A DNA stretch of 64,000 bases, from the NCBI GenBank assembly GCA_028286585.1, contig JAQBRI010000011.1, forward strand, positions 1,648-65,647, written 5' to 3'. Source of the DNA: Candidatus Kaiserbacteria bacterium (GTDB taxonomy: Bacteria > Patescibacteriota > Minisyncoccia > Phycocordibacterales > UBA2100). Numbering within the stretch: the stretch's first letter is position 1; each line of letters starts with the position of its first letter. Positions 3,722 through 41,446 of the stretch are shown here, one piece after another. Both the position numbers and the translations under genes were made by a program. The notes under the pieces are model-generated. The model worked only from the letters and a program-made list of their open reading frames with translations, was not told the DNA's origin and ran no database searches.

Positions 3722-4147
3722 ATGACTAAAACAGCGCCTAACTTTGAGGAAATATTGCGTGAGGGTGGCTATAAGGCCACCCCAGGGCGCGTCCTTTTGC
3801 TTAAGACTCTCTTTGGAGAGGAAAAGCCAGTGACCGTTTCCTACTTGGAGAAAAAGCTTAAAAGCGCAATTGATAAAGTAACGCTCTATCGCGCACTTGA
3901 TTCGATGGTAGTCTCAGGAGTAGTACGTGAGGTGGATTTTCGCCACGGTCATGCACACTATGAACTTCAAATATTGCGCAAACATCACCATCATATTGTC
4001 TGCACTAACTGCGCACTTGTTGAGGATGTTGATTGCAATACCGAGCCATTTGTAAAACAGGTAGAAAAAAAATCCAAAAAATTTGATTTGATCAGCGATC
4101 ACTCTACGGAATTTTTTGGTCTATGCAAAAATTGCACTAAAGTTTAG
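3722..4147 (+). CDS. Fur family transcriptional regulator
   Basis: Fur-like winged helix (VTLYRALDSMVVSGVV), His-rich metal site (HGHAHYE ... HHHHIVC) and CxxC ... CxxC (CTNC ... CKNC). Confidence 0.85.
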   Translation: MTKTAPNFEEILREGGYKATPGRVLLLKTLFGEEKPVTVSYLEKKLKSAIDKVTLYRALDSMVVSGVVREVDFRHGHAHYELQILRKHHHHIVCTNCALVEDVDCNTEPFVKQVEKKSKKFDLISDHSTEFFGLCKNCTKV

Positions 4148-5274
4148 TGATGATGAGAGTGTTCCCGTATCGGATCTTTTTCTGAAAGCAAATATGATGC
4201 AATTAAAGTAGTGATTGGAACTGCAAGTATGAGTCCTATACTACCAATAAGAATACGGACTATTTCTGTCGAGAATAATTCTCCATTGATGATAGCGCCT
4301 AAATTTGCACTTGGAGAATACGTTTCCTTTAGAAGGAGCAGAAGTGGTAGCGCAACGCCCACATACGCTATCGCGAGAGTGTTTACCAAAGCACCTATAT
4401 GTTCTCGTCCGATGCGGATTGCCCGTTTATATATTTCGAGACGAGTCATGTGCCTTCCTGCATGAAAAAGCTCTTCGACCGCAATTGCTTGTCCGATGGC
4501 AATATCGTAGAGCACCCCCAAAAGACCTATCATAATACCGCCAAACAAAAGTCCAATCATGCTGATGTTTCCGTGAGTATTGAAATTAAGATATATGTTT
4601 TCCTCGGTCGTGTATCCACTGAAGTGCCCGATATGCACGACGTAATAAGCTCCGAGGCCAGTAATAATAACAGTGATAAGCATGCCAATGGCTGCTGCGC
4701 TTGTTGTCTTATTAAAACCATGTGTGATGTACGAACCTGCAATAATAATCAGTGAAGAAACTCCAATACTTACCAAAATAGGCGAGTAACCGCTCAATAT
4801 GCCAGGCAGGAGCACATAGAATATTAGAATCAAACTACCTATCAAACTTGCAAGTCCTCTGATGCCTTGTATTCCACCAAAAAAGAAAAGCAGCAACAGA
4901 AAAACCAGACCAAGTCCTATGAGTACATTAAGGCGGTATGCATCTGAAACGGTCCAATACTCCGCACCGCCGAGCGAATTACTTTGGTGACGAATATAAA
5001 AAATATCACCAACACTTAATTGGGTAAAATCATTTTCAAAGGTAACTACCTGCCCTTTATCCGGCCCTTCGAGCACTTTTGCTTTGAGTGTCTGTACTTT
5101 GGTGGATACATCGGTGCCCGCAACAATCGTATCGTGCTGATTGGTCATTTCCAAGACCTGCGCTTTTTCTATATTCACCGCATCGGGTACAGCCTCGGCT
5201 TGAGCATATACAAATACAGGTAGAAAGAATGGAACTATCAGTGCAAAGACGAAGGAAACCCTGGTTAATTTCAT
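4144..5274 (-). CDS. YibE/F-like integral membrane protein
   Basis: Signal peptide, extracytoplasmic N-terminal domain, then 6-7 TM helices. The layout and GRHMT-like segment resemble YibE/F. Family assignment is tentative. Confidence 0.5.
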   Translation of the reverse strand: MKLTRVSFVFALIVPFFLPVFVYAQAEAVPDAVNIEKAQVLEMTNQHDTIVAGTDVSTKVQTLKAKVLEGPDKGQVVTFENDFTQLSVGDIFYIRHQSNSLGGAEYWTVSDAYRLNVLIGLGLVFLLLLFFFGGIQGIRGLASLIGSLILIFYVLLPGILSGYSPILVSIGVSSLIIIAGSYITHGFNKTTSAAAIGMLITVIITGLGAYYVVHIGHFSGYTTEENIYLNFNTHGNISMIGLLFGGIMIGLLGVLYDIAIGQAIAVEELFHAGRHMTRLEIYKRAIRIGREHIGALVNTLAIAYVGVALPLLLLLKETYSPSANLGAIINGELFSTEIVRILIGSIGLILAVPITTLIASYLLSEKDPIREHSHHH

Positions 5275-5341
5275 TATTCCTAATTATACGCTTATTCTCC
5301 AATTGTAACGAGCTTCATAGAAATTGAGATATAATAAAAGT

Positions 5342-5947
5342 ATGAGAAAAATAATCACAACTACGTTTGTAACTTTAGACGGTGTTATGCAGGCGCCTGG
5401 CGGTTCGCAAGAAGATACATCGGGCGGTTTTATATATGGAGGATGGCAGATATCTTTTCCCTCGGATAAAATGTTTGAGTCCAAGATGATGGAATTTATG
5501 CATATTCCATTCGAACTTCTTCTCGGTAAAAAAACTTACGATATCTTTGCATCATTTTGGCCACACGCTACTACAGATCTTGATGTAGCAAATCCATTTA
5601 ATAAAACAAAGAAATATGTTGTCTCGCACAATTCTTTCGAACCTTCGTGGGACAATTCGGTCTGCATTACTGGTGATGTAGTTGCGCAAATACGAAAAAT
5701 AAAAGAAGAGGATGGTCCTGATTTGTGGGTATATGGAAGCGGAAATCTTATTCAAACGTTGCTCAAAGAACACTTAATAGATCGCATGCATCTATGGATA
5801 CACCCCATCACAATTGGTACTGGCAAACAACTTTTTGCAGAAGGCGCGCAACCTCAAAATTTTAAACTTGTTGATTCGCAAATTGGCGCAACAGGCATTA
5901 TCTTTGCCACCTACGAACCTGCTGGACCACTGAAAACAGTTCAATAA
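5342..5947 (+). CDS. dihydrofolate reductase family protein (RibD C-terminal domain type)
   Basis: MRKIITTTFVTLDGVMQAPGG is the typical RibD_C/YwjB-type N-terminus. The track ORF starts at a TTG at 5324. The ATG at 5342 gives the canonical start. Confidence 0.8.
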   Translation: MRKIITTTFVTLDGVMQAPGGSQEDTSGGFIYGGWQISFPSDKMFESKMMEFMHIPFELLLGKKTYDIFASFWPHATTDLDVANPFNKTKKYVVSHNSFEPSWDNSVCITGDVVAQIRKIKEEDGPDLWVYGSGNLIQTLLKEHLIDRMHLWIHPITIGTGKQLFAEGAQPQNFKLVDSQIGATGIIFATYEPAGPLKTVQ

Positions 5948-35633: not shown

Positions 35634-37127
35634 ATGATTTTCAGTTCACTTCGTAAGTCTTCGAGCGCGCAAAGCCGCTCGGACCTCTACCTTCATAATA
35701 CGCTCGGCAACGAGAATCAGATTTTTAAACTTCCTCCTATCGCGCGCTATGTGCGCATGTACAACTGTGGCCCTACCGTTTATGGCGAACAGCACATCGG
35801 CAATCTCTCGATGTTTGTATTTACCGACGTACTTCGTCGCGTTTTGCAATATCATGGGCATGAGGTAAAACAGGTCATCAATATCACCGATTTTGGGCAC
35901 CTTTCCGGCGATAATCAGGGCGATGCAGATATTGGCGAAGATCGCATGACAAAGGGCTTAAAACGCGAAAATATGGCCATTACGATGGAAAATATGGCCC
36001 TCTTGGCCGAGAAATACACTCAGGTGTTCTTGGGTGATTTAACGACGCTCAACATCGATGTTTCCAAAATAGAATTTCCTCGAGCAAGCGCCTATGTGCC
36101 AGCGCAAATTGCGATGATTCAAACCCTTATCGAAAAAGGATATGCGTACCAGTGCGCGGACGGTGTCTATTACGATACATTGCGATTCCCTGATTACGGC
36201 ATATTGGGTGGCATCGATTTAGAAGGTCTTAAGGCTGGTGCTCGTGTTGCAATGAGTAGTGAGAAGCGACACCCAACCGACTTTTTACTTTGGAAGTCTG
36301 ATGCGAGCATTGGATGGGAGTCACCATGGGGTAAAGGCTTTCCTGGCTGGCATATCGAATGTTCTGCAATGGCGCGTGCAGTATTAGGTGAGCAAATAGA
36401 CATTCACACGGGTGGAATAGAACACATTCCGATTCATCACAATAACGAAATTGCACAGTCCGAAGCAGCGACAGGCAAAAAGCCATTCTCACGTTTTTGG
36501 ATGCATCGTGCACACCTGCAGATCGACGGCGGGAAAATTGCAAAGTCAGATGGTAATGTTGTGTATCTTTCAGAAATAATTGAGCGTGGCTTTCACCCCA
36601 TCGCTTTTAGATACTTGTGTCTGGGTGCGCATTACCGAACGAATGCTAACTTTTCGTGGGATGCACTTGCCGCTTCGCAGTCGGCACTCGTGAAGCTTAC
36701 GGCGTTTTACCTAGAACATGCCGATCTTAATGCAGTAGACGCCCCGGTCAAGTGGCAGAACGAATTTGATCATCGTGTTAACGACGACTTGGATACGCCA
36801 GGTGCTCTTGCTACCGTATGGGCAATGCTCAAGAGTGATGACTACAGCACACCAGAAAAGCTCGCGGCACTTCGCACCGTTGACATGGTACTTGGTCTTA
36901 CTATTACCGAGCCAGACGAGCAGCTGCGCACACTTGCACAAGCTGAAATACGGACAGAGATTCCAATGAGTGAACTTCCAGAAAATATCCGGGCACTTGT
37001 ACAAGAGCGCGAAGAAGCTCGCACAAACAAAAATTGGTCCAAATCCGACGAACTCCGCGCAACCCTCACCTCCCTCGGCTACTCCCTCGATGACGCAAAG
37101 AGTGGCGTTAAGGTGTACAGAATCTAA
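35634..37127 (+). CDS. cysS: cysteine--tRNA ligase
   Basis: HIGN (EQHIGNLSM), Zn-binding Cys (YNCGPTVY ... HIECSAM), KMSKS-equivalent KIAKSDG. Length 497 aa. Confidence 0.9.
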   Translation: MIFSSLRKSSSAQSRSDLYLHNTLGNENQIFKLPPIARYVRMYNCGPTVYGEQHIGNLSMFVFTDVLRRVLQYHGHEVKQVINITDFGHLSGDNQGDADIGEDRMTKGLKRENMAITMENMALLAEKYTQVFLGDLTTLNIDVSKIEFPRASAYVPAQIAMIQTLIEKGYAYQCADGVYYDTLRFPDYGILGGIDLEGLKAGARVAMSSEKRHPTDFLLWKSDASIGWESPWGKGFPGWHIECSAMARAVLGEQIDIHTGGIEHIPIHHNNEIAQSEAATGKKPFSRFWMHRAHLQIDGGKIAKSDGNVVYLSEIIERGFHPIAFRYLCLGAHYRTNANFSWDALAASQSALVKLTAFYLEHADLNAVDAPVKWQNEFDHRVNDDLDTPGALATVWAMLKSDDYSTPEKLAALRTVDMVLGLTITEPDEQLRTLAQAEIRTEIPMSELPENIRALVQEREEARTNKNWSKSDELRATLTSLGYSLDDAKSGVKVYRI

Positions 37128-37192
37128 ATAAAATTGAATGCCTCAAATATATTCGCTTGCTATATTTTATAGTGAAGACTATCATTGCGCAT

Positions 37193-37870
37193 ATGAAGTG
37201 CCCCTATCCAGATTGTCAAAAAGACTATAACCAGAATTGGCAAGATTTTTTTCGTGGATGGCTATGGAATCAGGACGATTACCCGTCGGATAATGAAAGA
37301 CATCTGCTCAAGCGAGTTAATCTTCACACGAGGCGCTGCCATTTTTGTAGTCGCCTTTTCCATGATATTTATATAGGAAATGAAAATCCAAAAATATTTG
37401 ATGATGCTACTAAGAGATTTATACAGGCTGCACCAGATCTCGAATTAATTGCTAGTTATCCCGCATCAAAAACATCCTTTAAGGCCAAGAAAGTTCCGGA
37501 AAACATTCGTAAATATTTTCATGAAGCGGAACGTTGTCGCTCAATTGGTGCGATGACAGGTGTAGCAGCATGCTTAAGAAAAACAGTATATGCAATCTGC
37601 GACGATTTAGGGGTAGGCGGGATTGATTACAAAGAAAAAATATCAAACTTACCCTTGAAAGAGGAGGTCTACAAAGAACTGTTGAAGCAAATAAAATTCC
37701 TCGGTGACAATGGCACTAAGCCGGGTGGCGATATTTATACATCAGATCAGATAGACATAGCTCTAAAAGTTTTGCCAGTCGTTATTGATAAACTCTATGA
37801 GCAAGACGAGCAAATAGACGAGGCCCAAAGAGCCTTGGCACACGCAAGATCCAAAGGACTTCAACTATAA
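37193..37870 (+). CDS. zinc-ribbon + DUF4145-like (HEPN-like) protein, degenerate motif
   Basis: CPYPDC ... CHFC zinc ribbon. C-terminal domain aligns with its neighbour's DUF4145 domain (AACLRKTVYAICDDLG ... IKFLGDNGTKPG) but lacks the His of the R..GN.aAH motif. The ATG at 37193 is preferred to the TTG at 37157. Confidence 0.5.
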   Translation: MKCPYPDCQKDYNQNWQDFFRGWLWNQDDYPSDNERHLLKRVNLHTRRCHFCSRLFHDIYIGNENPKIFDDATKRFIQAAPDLELIASYPASKTSFKAKKVPENIRKYFHEAERCRSIGAMTGVAACLRKTVYAICDDLGVGGIDYKEKISNLPLKEEVYKELLKQIKFLGDNGTKPGGDIYTSDQIDIALKVLPVVIDKLYEQDEQIDEAQRALAHARSKGLQL

Positions 37871-37876
37871 ATTAGA

Positions 37877-38521
37877 TTATACGTCGTTCTTTTTCTTACT
37901 ATCGATCACTGCTTGTACCGCCTTAAGTTTGGAGGGAGCTACATATACGTATTCAAGAATCGTAGTAAAAAAATCATCTATTATTCTTGCGTCTTCAAAA
38001 CCTACTTTTGTGTCAGTTGCGTGCGCCCCGACGTTACCAAAAAATCTTAAAGCAGTAGTCATCTTTGACAAAGTTGGGGGGATAATTTCCTTCTTTACCA
38101 GATCATTTAGCTGATTAACGAGATTTTTTCCAACTGCATGCTGATCTTTACAAATATATTCCAGACAGCGACGTATTAATACGGCGAAAGCAATTGGGGA
38201 TATTCTAAATACACGTTTAGCCTCCGTATAATTTTCTATTATAACAAGAGGGACACTGCCGTCATATTTCTTGGAACTTGGGTAAAGTAAAAAAGCTTCG
38301 TTCAAATCCCCCAAGTCTGCACTTTCACCCCAATCAGAATAAAGCGAAAACTCAGAACAATTTTTACATTGTGCCAAAAATAAATAAGTTTCAACTTCTC
38401 TATCATCCCCCGGATGAAATTCTACTATTTCACTTTTACCTTGAACATGGAAAATTACTGTTTGCGAAGTTTTTTGATGACAATGTTGGCAATTTATCAA
38501 TTGCAACTTCGATGTAGTCAT
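37877..38521 (-). CDS. zinc-ribbon + DUF4145 (HEPN-like) protein
   Basis: CQHC ... CKNC zinc ribbon. C-terminal VLIRRCLEYICKD ... ALRFFGNVGAHATD ... ARIIDDFFTTILEYVY fits the DUF4145 consensus, including R..GN.aAH. Confidence 0.55.
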   Translation of the reverse strand: MTTSKLQLINCQHCHQKTSQTVIFHVQGKSEIVEFHPGDDREVETYLFLAQCKNCSEFSLYSDWGESADLGDLNEAFLLYPSSKKYDGSVPLVIIENYTEAKRVFRISPIAFAVLIRRCLEYICKDQHAVGKNLVNQLNDLVKKEIIPPTLSKMTTALRFFGNVGAHATDTKVGFEDARIIDDFFTTILEYVYVAPSKLKAVQAVIDSKKKNDV

Positions 38522-38523
38522 AC

Positions 38524-41403
38524 TTATTTAATTACAAAATTCACCAACTTATTAGGTACTACGATCACGCGGATGATGTTTTGATCTTTAAGGCGGTCGG
38601 AGGCGATGGTGCGAGCGATCTTTTCAAGAGTTTCATTATCGGTGTCGGTGGCTGCGCGGAACTGCTCGCGCATTTTCCCGTTGATAGATACCATAATAGT
38701 TACTTCGGACACTGCCAAAAATTTCTTATCGGCCTTTGGCCACTTTTCGAGGTGTATCGACTTTTTGTTACCAAGCACACTCCACATCTCCTCAGTTATA
38801 TGCGGAGCAAACGGTGCCAATATTCGTAGGAATGTTGCCAATTGCTTCTCCCCTACCCCCTTTTTTTCTACCTCGTTTACAAAAACCATCATTGCGGAAA
38901 CTGCGGTATTAAACTTCATTTCCTCTATATCCCCACCCACCTTTTGAATACACACATGCAATGCGTGGTTAACATCTGCTACTTCTTTCTTTTGTACAAT
39001 ATCCTGCAGTCGCCAAATACGATCGAGAAAGCGTTTTACGCCCACCATGTTGTTGGTGTTCCAGGCAATCGATTCGCCAAATGGACCCATAAACATTTCA
39101 TAGACTCGCAGCGTATCAGCGCCAACTGCTTTTATTATTTCGTCAGGGCTCAGCGCATTGCCTTTTGACTTACTCATCTTTGCCCCTCCTTCGGCCAAAA
39201 TAAGCCCATGGCTCGTCCGTTTTATATAAGGCTCGCTTGTGGGTACTAGTTTAAGATCGTAGAGGAATTTGTGCCAAAAGCGGCTGTACAGCAAGTGGAG
39301 TGTTGTGTGCTCCATACCTCCGTTGTACCAGTCAACTGGAGTCCATTTCTTTAAAAGTGTTTTGTCGGCAAGAGCTTTTTTGTTCTTTGGATCAACATAT
39401 CGCAAAAAGTACCATGATGAACCTGCCCAGTTTGGCATCGTGTCAGTCTCGCGGCGTGCCCAGTTTTTGCACTGAGGACATTTTACCCGCAGCCACTTTT
39501 CCATAGTCGAAAGCGGAGATTCTCCGTCGTCTGTTGGTTCGTACTTTTTGACGTTGGGAAGTTTGACCGGCAAATCCTTTTCTGGCACAGGAATCCATCC
39601 AAGTGTCTCTGGATTCTTAAGGCCACAGTATTCACAGCGGATCATTGGAATTGGTTCGCCCCAGTATCGCTGACGAGAGAAAACCCAATCACGAAGTTTG
39701 AACGTTGTTATCATCTTGCCTCCCACCTCATCAACAATCTTTTTCATTGCTTCGGCACTTTCCATTCGATTATAAGTACTCGAATTAGACAGTGTGCCGT
39801 AGTCAGTATAAATTCCCCCGTTACCACTCAAGACTTTGAGAAAGTACTGGTGCGTATCTGCAGTCAAGAATTTAGCGAGCTCTGCTTTTGTAAGCCACAT
39901 GACCTCGTGCATTGCTTCCTCTTTTGTATCTACCGAAACTCGCTCGTCGTTTTCAAGCTCAAGATACACCATGTGTGCATGAGAATTGCGATTGGTCTTT
40001 TTTGGAACGTGATAAAACTTGCCGTGTACAATTCCATAATCTTTTACAAAGCGTGCATTCTTGTATCCTACCTCTTCGAGCAGTTCTGCTTTTGCTGCAG
40101 TCTCTGGTGTCTGTCCCTTCTCGATACCTCCGGTAATAAAAGTGCCCCATGCAACCTGTTTCCACTTAAGACCAATGTATTTGTCTTCTGACCAATGTTT
40201 TACGACTGCAATAATAGCTTCACGATGATCAAATGGTTCACCCTCCCGAATCTTGCCTGGCTCTGTTGTCTGACTGTAGGTTGGTTCGATCACCTGCCTT
40301 ATCGGCAAATCAAACTTTTTTGCAAACTCATTGTCGCGCTGATCGTGCGCTGGTACTGCCATAATAGCGCCAGTACCGTAGTGTGCGAGTACATAGTCTG
40401 CAATATAGACTGGAATCTTTTCTTTATTCGCTGGGTTGATAGCCCAAATGCCTTCAAGGCGTACACCTGTCTTTTCTTTGCCTTCGGCAGTACGTTCGAT
40501 TTCGGGTTTGTTTTTTGCGGCTTTTGCATACGCTCGCACTGCATCTTCATTATTCAAAAGTCCCTTGTGCGTAAGTGAAAGTGTTACAAACAAATGATCT
40601 GGCGCGAGTACCAGGTATGTCGCTCCAAACAAAGTGTCTGGGCGTGTGGTAAAGACTGCAAGAGAACCATCTTGTGCCTTGGGTTGATTATCAAATGTTA
40701 CGGCAAAATTTATTTCGGCACCCTCACTTTTACCTATCCAGTTGCGCTGCTGTGTTTTGATTTTTTCCAGATATTCGACACCATCGAGATCGTTGTACAA
40801 ACGTTCTGCATACTTGGTAATTGCAAGCATCCATTGCTCTTTCTCACGTTTTTCGACAACACTTCCGCAACGTTCACAGCATCCGTCGACGACTTCTTCG
40901 TTTGCGAGCCCAATCTTATCGACTGGGCACCAGTTAATAGGCATCTTACTTTTGTATGCAAGACCTTTTTTGTACATCTGCAAAAAGATCCACTGCGTCC
41001 ATTTGTAGTATTCGGGATCAGTGGTATTGATCTCGCGTGACCAGTCAAACGAAAATCCTATTCGCTTGAGTTGTTTGCGAAAGGTATCGGTATTTTGTTT
41101 TGTAACTTTTGCCGGATGAATACCAGTTTTGATGGCGTAGTTCTCGGTTGGAAGTCCAAAGGCGTCCCATCCTATTGGATACAAAACGTCGTACCCTTCG
41201 GCACGACGCTTGTGGGAAATAATATCCATTGCAGTGTTAGATCGCACGTGTCCAACATGGAGTCCGCTACCAGATGGGTACGGGAACTCGATAAGGGCAT
41301 AGAACTTCTTTTTGCCTGCCACTTTTGGCGCTTGCCAGATTTTGGACTTTTCCCACTTTGCCTGCCACTTTTTTTCGATTTTGTTGTGGTCGTACTTGCT
41401 CAT
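38524..41403 (-). CDS. leuS: leucine--tRNA ligase with NUDIX-fold insertion
   Basis: HVGHVRSNTAMD (HIGH), the TTRPDT and AVPAHDQRD editing-domain motifs, KMSKS. About 135 extra residues between IRQVIEP and FKLRDWVFSRQRYWG contain a Nudix-like fold (WGTFITGGIEKGQTPETAAKAELLEEVGY). The ATG at 41403 (MSKYDHNKIEKKWQ) is preferred to the GTG at 41412. Confidence 0.9.
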   Translation of the reverse strand: MSKYDHNKIEKKWQAKWEKSKIWQAPKVAGKKKFYALIEFPYPSGSGLHVGHVRSNTAMDIISHKRRAEGYDVLYPIGWDAFGLPTENYAIKTGIHPAKVTKQNTDTFRKQLKRIGFSFDWSREINTTDPEYYKWTQWIFLQMYKKGLAYKSKMPINWCPVDKIGLANEEVVDGCCERCGSVVEKREKEQWMLAITKYAERLYNDLDGVEYLEKIKTQQRNWIGKSEGAEINFAVTFDNQPKAQDGSLAVFTTRPDTLFGATYLVLAPDHLFVTLSLTHKGLLNNEDAVRAYAKAAKNKPEIERTAEGKEKTGVRLEGIWAINPANKEKIPVYIADYVLAHYGTGAIMAVPAHDQRDNEFAKKFDLPIRQVIEPTYSQTTEPGKIREGEPFDHREAIIAVVKHWSEDKYIGLKWKQVAWGTFITGGIEKGQTPETAAKAELLEEVGYKNARFVKDYGIVHGKFYHVPKKTNRNSHAHMVYLELENDERVSVDTKEEAMHEVMWLTKAELAKFLTADTHQYFLKVLSGNGGIYTDYGTLSNSSTYNRMESAEAMKKIVDEVGGKMITTFKLRDWVFSRQRYWGEPIPMIRCEYCGLKNPETLGWIPVPEKDLPVKLPNVKKYEPTDDGESPLSTMEKWLRVKCPQCKNWARRETDTMPNWAGSSWYFLRYVDPKNKKALADKTLLKKWTPVDWYNGGMEHTTLHLLYSRFWHKFLYDLKLVPTSEPYIKRTSHGLILAEGGAKMSKSKGNALSPDEIIKAVGADTLRVYEMFMGPFGESIAWNTNNMVGVKRFLDRIWRLQDIVQKKEVADVNHALHVCIQKVGGDIEEMKFNTAVSAMMVFVNEVEKKGVGEKQLATFLRILAPFAPHITEEMWSVLGNKKSIHLEKWPKADKKFLAVSEVTIMVSINGKMREQFRAATDTDNETLEKIARTIASDRLKDQNIIRVIVVPNKLVNFVIK

Positions 41404-41446
41404 ATTGAACACTCTATCATGTGGAATATGATCAAGCTATATTGTG

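Follow-up and report, generated by a model that had tools for sequence, protein, structure and literature searches.

What brings two convergent genes of the same domain plan together between two aminoacyl-tRNA synthetase genes, and does either of them need the other? The question is raised by a 64,000-nucleotide stretch of DNA (hereafter the window) from a metagenome-assembled genome (MAG) of Candidatus Kaiserbacteria (Patescibacteria), in which cysS (35634-37127, plus strand) and leuS (38524-41412, minus strand) form the left and right edges of a slot holding two open reading frames (ORFs). These are ORF A (37193-37870, plus strand; 225 residues and a stop) and ORF B (37877-38521, minus strand; 214 residues and a stop), the locus tags of the two genes being JWO50_839 and JWO50_840. 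A first-pass annotation of this DNA had read the pair as an active and a degenerate copy of one putative RNase-like domain, forming a toxin/antitoxin or abortive-infection module. The observations presented here suggest that they are probably two independent, horizontally acquired, single-gene antiphage systems resembling RAZR (ring-activated zinc-finger RNase), lodged side by side in a variable cysS-leuS slot and adjacent because of the insertion hotspot rather than any mutual need.

RAZR was originally recovered as PD-T7-4 in a functional selection in Escherichia coli (PMC9519451), and was later renamed and characterized as a single-gene abortive-infection system (PMC13017515). Its N-terminal Cys4 zinc ribbon binds phage proteins that form rings (Gp77 in SECphi27, the portal in T3, T7 and SECphi18), around which RAZR assembles as a 24-mer. 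The DUF4145 domain, a divergent HEPN RNase whose catalytic residues are R146 and H154, cuts single-stranded RNA, including tRNA, rRNA and mRNA, and stops translation; RAZR alone is non-toxic (PMC13017515). As comparators we used the PADLOC model of PD-T7-4 (PDLC04109) and the 219-residue RAZR chain of the PDB entry 9y9c.

ORF B presents the canonical form of this architecture. Its N-terminal domain (residues ~1-80; 38282-38521, minus strand) displays a Cys4 zinc ribbon, C11-x2-C14 and C52-x2-C55, in which C52 and C55 are invariant and C11 and C14 nearly so across 21 sequences. The Pfam model of DUF4145 recovered residues 100-185 with 71.6 bits (E 6e-20), the PD-T7-4 model aligned with residues 6-187, zinc-ribbon domain included (E 9.2e-17), and the phage protein family PHROG 1305 was matched nearly end to end (E 7e-30). 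An AlphaFold2 (AF2) model with a mean predicted local distance difference test score (pLDDT) of 87.0 shows an N-terminal beta domain followed by a C-terminal helical bundle. Foldseek searches with the C-terminal domain gave the HEPN-MNT structures 7ae6, 7bxo and 5yep as the top structural matches, and the helical part of the AF2 models matched 2hsb with a target-normalized template modelling score (TMt) of 0.62-0.64. ORF B also matched the RAZR chain 9y9c in direct sequence comparison with E 1.8e-4, and the B-family profile did so with E 1.2e-10. In this alignment the segment R159-F-F-G-N-V-G-A-H167 of ORF B falls on RIVGNQAVH of RAZR, which contains the only Arg and His that lie eight residues apart in that chain and was for this reason taken to be the catalytic R146/H154 pair. 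The motif His is invariant in the B family and the Arg nearly so; the intact catalytic motif claimed for the minus-strand copy in the first-pass annotation, a HEPN R-x7-H, can be read directly at 38021-38047 (minus strand). Judged by these similarities, ORF B belongs to the RAZR kind as a regular, if distant, member.

ORF A shares the two-domain plan. Its beta-rich N-terminal domain (residues ~1-90; 37193-37462, plus strand), the presumed sensor, with AF2 strands between residues 20 and 89, contains the zinc ribbon C3-x4-C8 and C49-x2-C52, all four Cys of which are invariant in 27 sequences. Its C-terminal helical DUF4145/HEPN domain (residues ~100-225; 37490-37867, plus strand) is recovered by Pfam, in the AF2 model and by matches to HEPN structures. 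The Pfam score is 26.1 bits (E 9e-6, residues 111-193), which, like that of ORF B, exceeds the gathering score of 23.1 set for DUF4145 (PF13643). The PD-T7-4 model matched ORF A with E 1.4e-6 in residues 91-219 only, and PHROG 1305 matched it nearly end to end (E 5e-17); NCBIfam held no model for ORF A and no relevant model for ORF B. The AF2 model of ORF A (mean pLDDT 84.3) again has a beta domain leading into a helical bundle, and a Foldseek search of the PDB recovered the HEPN structures 2hsb (probability 0.99, TMt 0.62), 7bxo and 1wol, while the A-family profile found no relevant match among PDB sequences. The Pfam scores and the profile homology described below bear out the earlier proposal that both proteins combine a zinc ribbon with a DUF4145/HEPN domain. 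By the PD-T7-4 model and the RAZR chain, ORF B is thus placed within PD-T7-4/RAZR and ORF A only partly so.

The position of the HEPN R-x7-H motif is filled in ORF A by a Lys...Lys pair, in the segment K168-F-L-G-D-N-G-T-K176 (37694-37720, plus strand), as read directly from the translation. A search of 5.8 billion proteins recovered 82 homologues of ORF A at 43-79% identity, indicating a family of at least 82 members. Those with a named source come from Kaiserbacteria, Paceibacterota, Peregrinibacteria, Shapirobacteria and the 'Patescibacteria group', and the genome loci of the family extend this range to Uhrbacteria, Andersenbacteria and Gracilibacteria. The K-x7-K motif occupies the R-x7-H position in 81 of the 82 close homologues, in the form K-[WF]-[LI]-G-D-x-x-[TS]-K-P, and all named members of this clade are Patescibacteria. 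In an alignment of 27 sequences, which has 43 invariant columns, K168, G171, D172 and K176 of ORF A are invariant and no conserved His is left in the HEPN domain. Against their closest homologues, both ORF A and ORF B show saturated synonymous differences (pS 0.77-0.85) and few nonsynonymous ones (pN 0.15-0.24), with dN/dS 0.07 in the single pair allowing an estimate of dS; both genes are under purifying selection. That ORF A might be a decaying copy was considered and is ruled out by the near-universal K-x7-K motif and by the low pN at saturated pS. Hence, the earlier observation that the plus-strand motif lacks its His (and Arg) stands, whereas the description of it as degenerate does not, as Lys/Lys is by its distribution a fixed signature of a strongly constrained family rather than a mark of decay.

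An exhaustive HMMER search of 1.84 billion representative sequences gave 665 matches with E up to 0.001, only 15 of them below 1e-30. Among the best 150 of these 665 matches, the nearest outgroup of the A family carries K-x7-H, and the broad remainder R-x7-H. The replacement of Arg by Lys, a change that is common in DUF4145, appears to have come first; that of His by Lys appears to have followed at the base of the K-x7-K clade, since the nearest outgroup keeps the His, with Lys/Lys fixed ever since. Examples of this outgroup lie outside Patescibacteria, in a Calditrichota MAG (L007, 536-1192) and a 'delta proteobacterium' MAG (L008, 9713-10426), with the motif strings IKWLGDNIVH and IKNIGDETVH keeping the His. 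Further zinc-ribbon/DUF4145 relatives (P0261, P0266, P0297, P0302, P0319, P0330 and others) carry Q or K at the Arg position and share the signature '...S-D-[KQ]-[VL]-H-E-x-S-W', with the His one column off; this group may constitute an additional variant of the motif. If ORF A does cleave RNA, its chemistry would have to be other than His-based, as its family retains no conserved His in the HEPN domain; RelE-type RNases are an instance of RNases that work without a His.

The alignment of the two C-terminal domains reported in the first-pass annotation is weak in pairwise comparison (BLASTP, 24% identity, E 0.024) and solid between profiles, where hhalign gave a probability of 96% (E 3.8e-9) over 170 columns that begin at the second CxxC knuckle and take in the linker and the entire HEPN domain. 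The A and B families are, at the level of their profiles, clearly homologous. Beyond the second CxxC knuckle, no homology was detected between the zinc ribbon of ORF A and that of RAZR.

Genomic context was examined in 29 non-redundant loci of the A family, all ORFs of which were scanned with hidden Markov models of both families; 16 of them extend at least 1 kb downstream (the side of ORF B in the window) and 24 at least 1 kb upstream, the neighbouring ORFs being called crudely from stop to stop and many of the metagenomic contigs being short. About 12 of the 29 loci have restriction-modification (R-M) or recombinase genes within 4 kb. These include N6_N4 DNA methylases (L011, L014, L015, L028), Eco57I/N6_Mtase/TaqI_C enzymes (L028, with BLAST-related ORFs in L013, L016, L017 and L031), an MjaI restriction endonuclease directly upstream of the A-family gene (L014, with a BLAST-related ORF in L011), an EcoRI methylase with a GmrSD/HNH gene directly upstream (L033), serine recombinases (L014, L020) and tyrosine integrases (L004, L006). 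Clustering of the neighbours within 4 kb revealed no universal one beyond these recurrent R-M and recombinase genes, and synteny with cysS or leuS was not found at other A-family loci. In L033, a 7-kb contig (1-7122), a resolvase, a REP_ORF2-G2P replication protein, an EcoRI-type methylase, a GmrSD/HNH gene and an A-family gene (77% identity) stand in a row, an arrangement suggestive of a small defence cassette, plasmid-like or mobile, in a Patescibacteria relative. Distant relatives of ORF B occur beside AbiEi/AbiEii and a type I HsdR (L044) and beside DUF1156/DUF499, ThsB_TIR and PD-(D/E)XK genes (L045). These neighbourhoods point to a role in defence for both families.

The slot itself was compared in the three closest relatives as judged by CysS. 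Upstream synteny is preserved in all three (L9, S41 peptidase, TerC, CorA and cysS), and the DNA similarity to the window ends at the cysS stop codon. The relative with 84% identical CysS (L037/L038) carries a short DpnI-like gene and a truncated type I R-M system, with leuS beyond, followed by DUF5671, MscS and YchF. The next (L039, CysS 79%) holds about 7.6 kb with nine other genes before leuS, and the third (L041, CysS 74%) a YgjP-like gene and small ORFs, its contig ending before leuS. Of this R-M system, HsdR is reduced to its C-terminal third (positions 646-1022 of the 1029 in the profile) and HsdM to its initial 112 residues, the slot here holding a decayed defence locus (L037, 9522-11600; L038, 5566-7644). 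No DUF4145 gene was found at the loci of the three relatives, and PADLOC detected nothing in the cargo of L039 and L041. The first-pass annotation had regarded the pair as an insertion into a housekeeping stretch, which agrees with the conserved flanks and differing cargo. It had also raised the possibility that cysS and leuS are adjacent without the insert in related genomes: in none of the relatives read are they directly adjacent, and the pair is replaced by other cargo, different each time. Since the relatives keep the flanks and carry different cargo, the slot is a variable insertion hotspot and the pair lineage-specific accessory cargo within it.

The layout of the insert confirms the convergent arrangement, 6 bp apart between cysS and leuS, that had been described before. 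The stop codon of ORF A (TAA, 37868-37870) is separated from that of ORF B (37877-37879, minus strand) by a spacer at 37871-37876, whose 6 bp are too short for an intergenic terminator. The start of ORF A had been placed at 37157, which is only the first in-frame TTG of the open frame; the NCBI call begins at the GTG at 37172, and all 26 aligned homologues open with MKCPY, MRCPY or MHCPY, for which reason the true start is almost certainly the ATG at 37193. This start lies 65 nt from cysS on the same strand, and on the other strand only 2 nt separate the leuS stop codon (38524-38526) from the downstream ATG of ORF B (38519-38521). In a consensus scan, promoter-like and terminator-like sites were no more frequent than expected from shuffled sequence. 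The GC content at third codon positions is 0.35 in ORF A and 0.29 in ORF B as against 0.40-0.50 in the five flanking genes measured, and the overall GC content dips at the insert, which is AT-richer than its surroundings; the insert is compositionally foreign.

Are the two genes nonetheless parts of one module? One could conceive of ORF A as a dead paralogue that joins the active HEPN RNase ORF B in a hetero-oligomer, serving as its antitoxin, inhibitor or regulator until infection. The genes are adjacent, their families are homologous, and one motif is intact while the other is substituted; moreover, two HEPN domains pair to form a composite active site, and RAZR builds higher-order oligomers, such that a dead subunit could in principle poison or tune the assembly. 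However, this reading is most improbable given the distribution of the two families. Every one of the 29 A-family loci has exactly one DUF4145 gene, the closest homologues of ORF A (79% in L032, 77% in L033/L034) being solitary, as are homologues of ORF B in five places (63% and 65% in L035 and L036, 51% in L042/L043, ~35% in L044 and L045/L046), and the closest homologues of ORF A (77-79%) and of ORF B (63-65%) occur in different contexts. A partner gene was found neither beside A at the 29 other loci nor beside B at the five other places, and A and B stand together only in the window and in L001, which is the same organism. The two genes are convergent and do not share an operon or co-transcription, no MNT gene is present, their products are only ~24% identical with differing zinc-ribbon domains, and RAZR needs no partner and is harmless by itself. 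A toxin/antitoxin or obligate pair was rejected on the convergent orientation and the absence of co-occurrence at the other loci read; with the single-gene nature of RAZR and the fixed K-x7-K motif added, the part of the first-pass annotation that cast an active and a degenerate copy in these roles finds no support. Genomic context indicates that each family works without an obligatory partner.

Alternatively, the pair might be the remnant of a degraded prophage or mobile element, carrying superinfection-exclusion cargo rather than a defence owned by the host. tblastn recovered distant homologues of ORF B in the Virgibacillus phage Mimir87 (31% identity over 99% of ORF B) and in several Streptococcus prophages; both proteins match PHROG 1305, the ORF A model matches two unnamed viral predicted structures in BFVD (E 1.2e-8 and 2.3e-5), and the insert is foreign in composition. 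Against this, ARAGORN found no tRNA or tmRNA in the 64-kb window, there are no meaningful direct or inverted repeats flanking the insert and no integrase or other phage gene in or beside its 1.4 kb, which comprises exactly two intact genes under purifying selection; ORF A had no tblastn match in phage records, and scans of IMG/VR found no relative of either family, close ones included. A prophage remnant is accordingly very improbable as the source, and as to function this reading overlaps with that of two antiphage systems. The phage homologues (MK560763.1, 13820-14455; NC_010945.1, 3469-3720; NC_004996.1, 3343-3594) are labelled 'DNA binding protein' or 'hypothetical protein', which in view of RAZR is probably wrong, and most of those in Streptococcus prophages lie 3-6 kb into the record; they may be prophage-borne defence genes. 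A further possibility concerns ORF A, which might serve the Patescibacteria cell in regulation or RNA handling, as a zinc-ribbon/HEPN protein that binds nucleic acids without catalysis and merely happens to sit beside a true defence gene. The loss of both catalytic residues would fit this, as would the 'DNA binding protein' label of PHROG 1305 and conservation unusually strong by the standards of defence genes (44-79% identity across lineages that include Kaiserbacteria, Peregrinibacteria and Shapirobacteria, together with the invariant columns noted above); a survey of HEPN domains found the motif conserved in only ~80% of DUF4145 domains, ~20% being without it (PMC3710099). We nevertheless consider it unlikely, as the family is patchy and has no conserved synteny, the gene is missing from the slot in the three closest relatives, R-M and recombinase genes recur beside it, including on the small contig with resolvase and Rep genes, and its low third-position GC content speaks for a foreign origin.

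Several observations weigh against the preferred interpretation, i.e. two independent RAZR-like systems in a hotspot. Both the Arg and the His of R-x7-H are missing from ORF A, K168 and K176 standing instead in KFLGDNGTK; its zinc-ribbon domain is left uncovered by the PD-T7-4 model; and neither its single sequence nor its family profile matched the RAZR chain 9y9c. For both ORF A and ORF B, the Foldseek matches to HEPN structures in the PDB all had E above 0.02, and 9y9c was not retrieved. The slot comparison comprises only three relatives, and to our knowledge neither Patescibacteria nor their phages are in culture.

With these reservations, the abortive-infection role put forward in the first-pass annotation would be the best-supported one for both proteins, since both match PD-T7-4/RAZR, an experimentally established abortive-infection RNase. 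By analogy with RAZR, the zinc ribbon of ORF B would bind a ring-shaped protein made by the phage, e.g. the portal, and the ring-bound protein would assemble into a curved higher-order oligomer. The dimerized HEPN domains, with R159 and H167, would thereby become active and cut single-stranded RNA (tRNA, rRNA and mRNA), which would halt translation and abort the infection. ORF A, built on the same plan of two domains, presumably responds to a different trigger because its zinc-ribbon domain differs, and its effector domain could either cleave RNA by chemistry that does not involve His or bind RNA without cutting it. Trigger, oligomerization, RNase activity and abortive-infection phenotype are all extrapolated from RAZR by homology only. 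ORF A is a functional gene under selection and most likely a defence effector as well. A more specific and rather tentative idea is that the K-x7-K clade represents a working RAZR-type immune protein in which the Arg/His dyad has been swapped for Lys/Lys. Such a protein could cleave RNA without His or bring about arrest without cleavage, e.g. by sequestering RNA or ribosomes upon oligomerization; that ORF A co-assembles with its canonical paralogue ORF B in the source genome is less likely.

If this idea were correct, K-x7-K would mark a separate way in which HEPN proteins act as effectors, and a defence characteristic of symbiotic bacteria of ultra-small size. Patescibacteria live as epibionts with tiny genomes, and few defence systems are known in them; the RAZR mechanism has been characterized only in E. 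coli, such that ORF B would extend the family to this group. The subfamily that ORF A defines is coherent, with both HEPN catalytic residues turned into Lys and held there since: should its members still be RNases, the chemistry available to HEPN domains would be broader, and should they not be, they would provide a natural, catalytically silent HEPN domain kept in defence islands. The locus is also a record of a small hotspot with changing cargo, flanked on either side by an aminoacyl-tRNA synthetase gene. Current understanding is extended by these findings in a modest and testable way rather than overturned.

Some additional observations concern the surroundings of the two families. B-family genes lie directly downstream, on the same strand, of aminoacyl-tRNA synthetase genes in two unrelated genomes: besides the window, a Patescibacteria genome (GCA_040384225.1; L042, 6605-8663) has one at a distance of 4 nt from a class II synthetase gene (tRNA_anti-codon and tRNA-synt_2). 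In L035 the B homologue follows def-fmt. In this small sample the adjacency to synthetase genes could be a coincidence, read-through expression or a functional link. The 962-residue LeuS encoded in the window contains a NUDIX domain (PF00293, E 6e-11, above the gathering score; residues 414-524, encoded at 39841-40173 on the minus strand), which is inserted after the editing-domain match and is also present in LeuS of the closest relatives. Elsewhere in the window, a YibE/F-like membrane protein (4147-5283, minus strand) and a RibD_C-domain protein (5321-5944, plus strand) have homologues near A-family genes at other loci, at distances of 1.7 kb (L002, 12343-13011), ~6 kb (L003) and 0.7 kb (L004, 11343-12464, and L023), the RibD_C protein of the window being 78% identical to the ORF in L002. 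The window copies are 32 kb from ORF A, and the co-location is probably a coincidence.

Compared with RAZR itself, both proteins agree in length (~215-225 residues as against the 219-residue chain), in having the Cys4 zinc ribbon first and the DUF4145 HEPN domain last, and in their occurrence as stand-alone genes in defence contexts. ORF B additionally keeps R-x7-H and matches 9y9c in sequence, although it is distant, the pairwise match being limited to the HEPN domain. ORF A differs in having K-x7-K rather than R-x7-H, in its zinc ribbon, which falls outside the PD-T7-4 match, and in the lack of a match to 9y9c; because K168/K176 replace the Arg and His and the Lys pair recurs in nearly all of its homologues, it is not to be classed as a canonical RAZR. 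The hosts differ as well, the two ORFs coming from a Patescibacteria symbiont and RAZR from E. coli. A parallel is offered by DS-38, a defence protein with a zinc finger and a HEPN domain validated in the DefensePredictor study (bioRxiv 10.1101/2025.01.08.631726): DS-38 and PD-T7-4 have unrelated zinc fingers and are separate working defence systems, much as ORF A stands to ORF B and RAZR, the comparison being one of descriptions only.

The HEPN-MNT (HepT-MntA) type II/VII toxin-antitoxin systems represented by 7ae6, 7bxo and 5yep share the HEPN fold, and match ORF A as well. They differ in that the pair in the window has no gene for an MNT nucleotidyltransferase, fuses DUF4145 to a zinc ribbon and is convergent rather than arranged as an operon. 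Other defence proteins with DUF4145, namely the anti-plasmid Ishtar1, the BREX-associated BxaP and fusions to type I HsdR/REase (PMC3710099; bioRxiv 10.64898/2026.07.06.735840; PMC10799925), similarly use this HEPN domain as the effector of a conflict system and are tied to R-M loci, but with other domain partners in another order and without the plan of N-terminal zinc ribbon and C-terminal HEPN domain. PHROG 1305, from temperate phages, comes close to both proteins in its nearly end-to-end matches; its label is an annotation and not a tested function, and it is set apart from the pair by the lack of an ORF A match in phage records and of relatives of either protein in IMG/VR. Viewed against all of these systems, ORF B is of the known RAZR kind, and what is new lies in ORF A, namely the confinement of its named members to Patescibacteria, the fixed K-x7-K motif and the divergent zinc ribbon.

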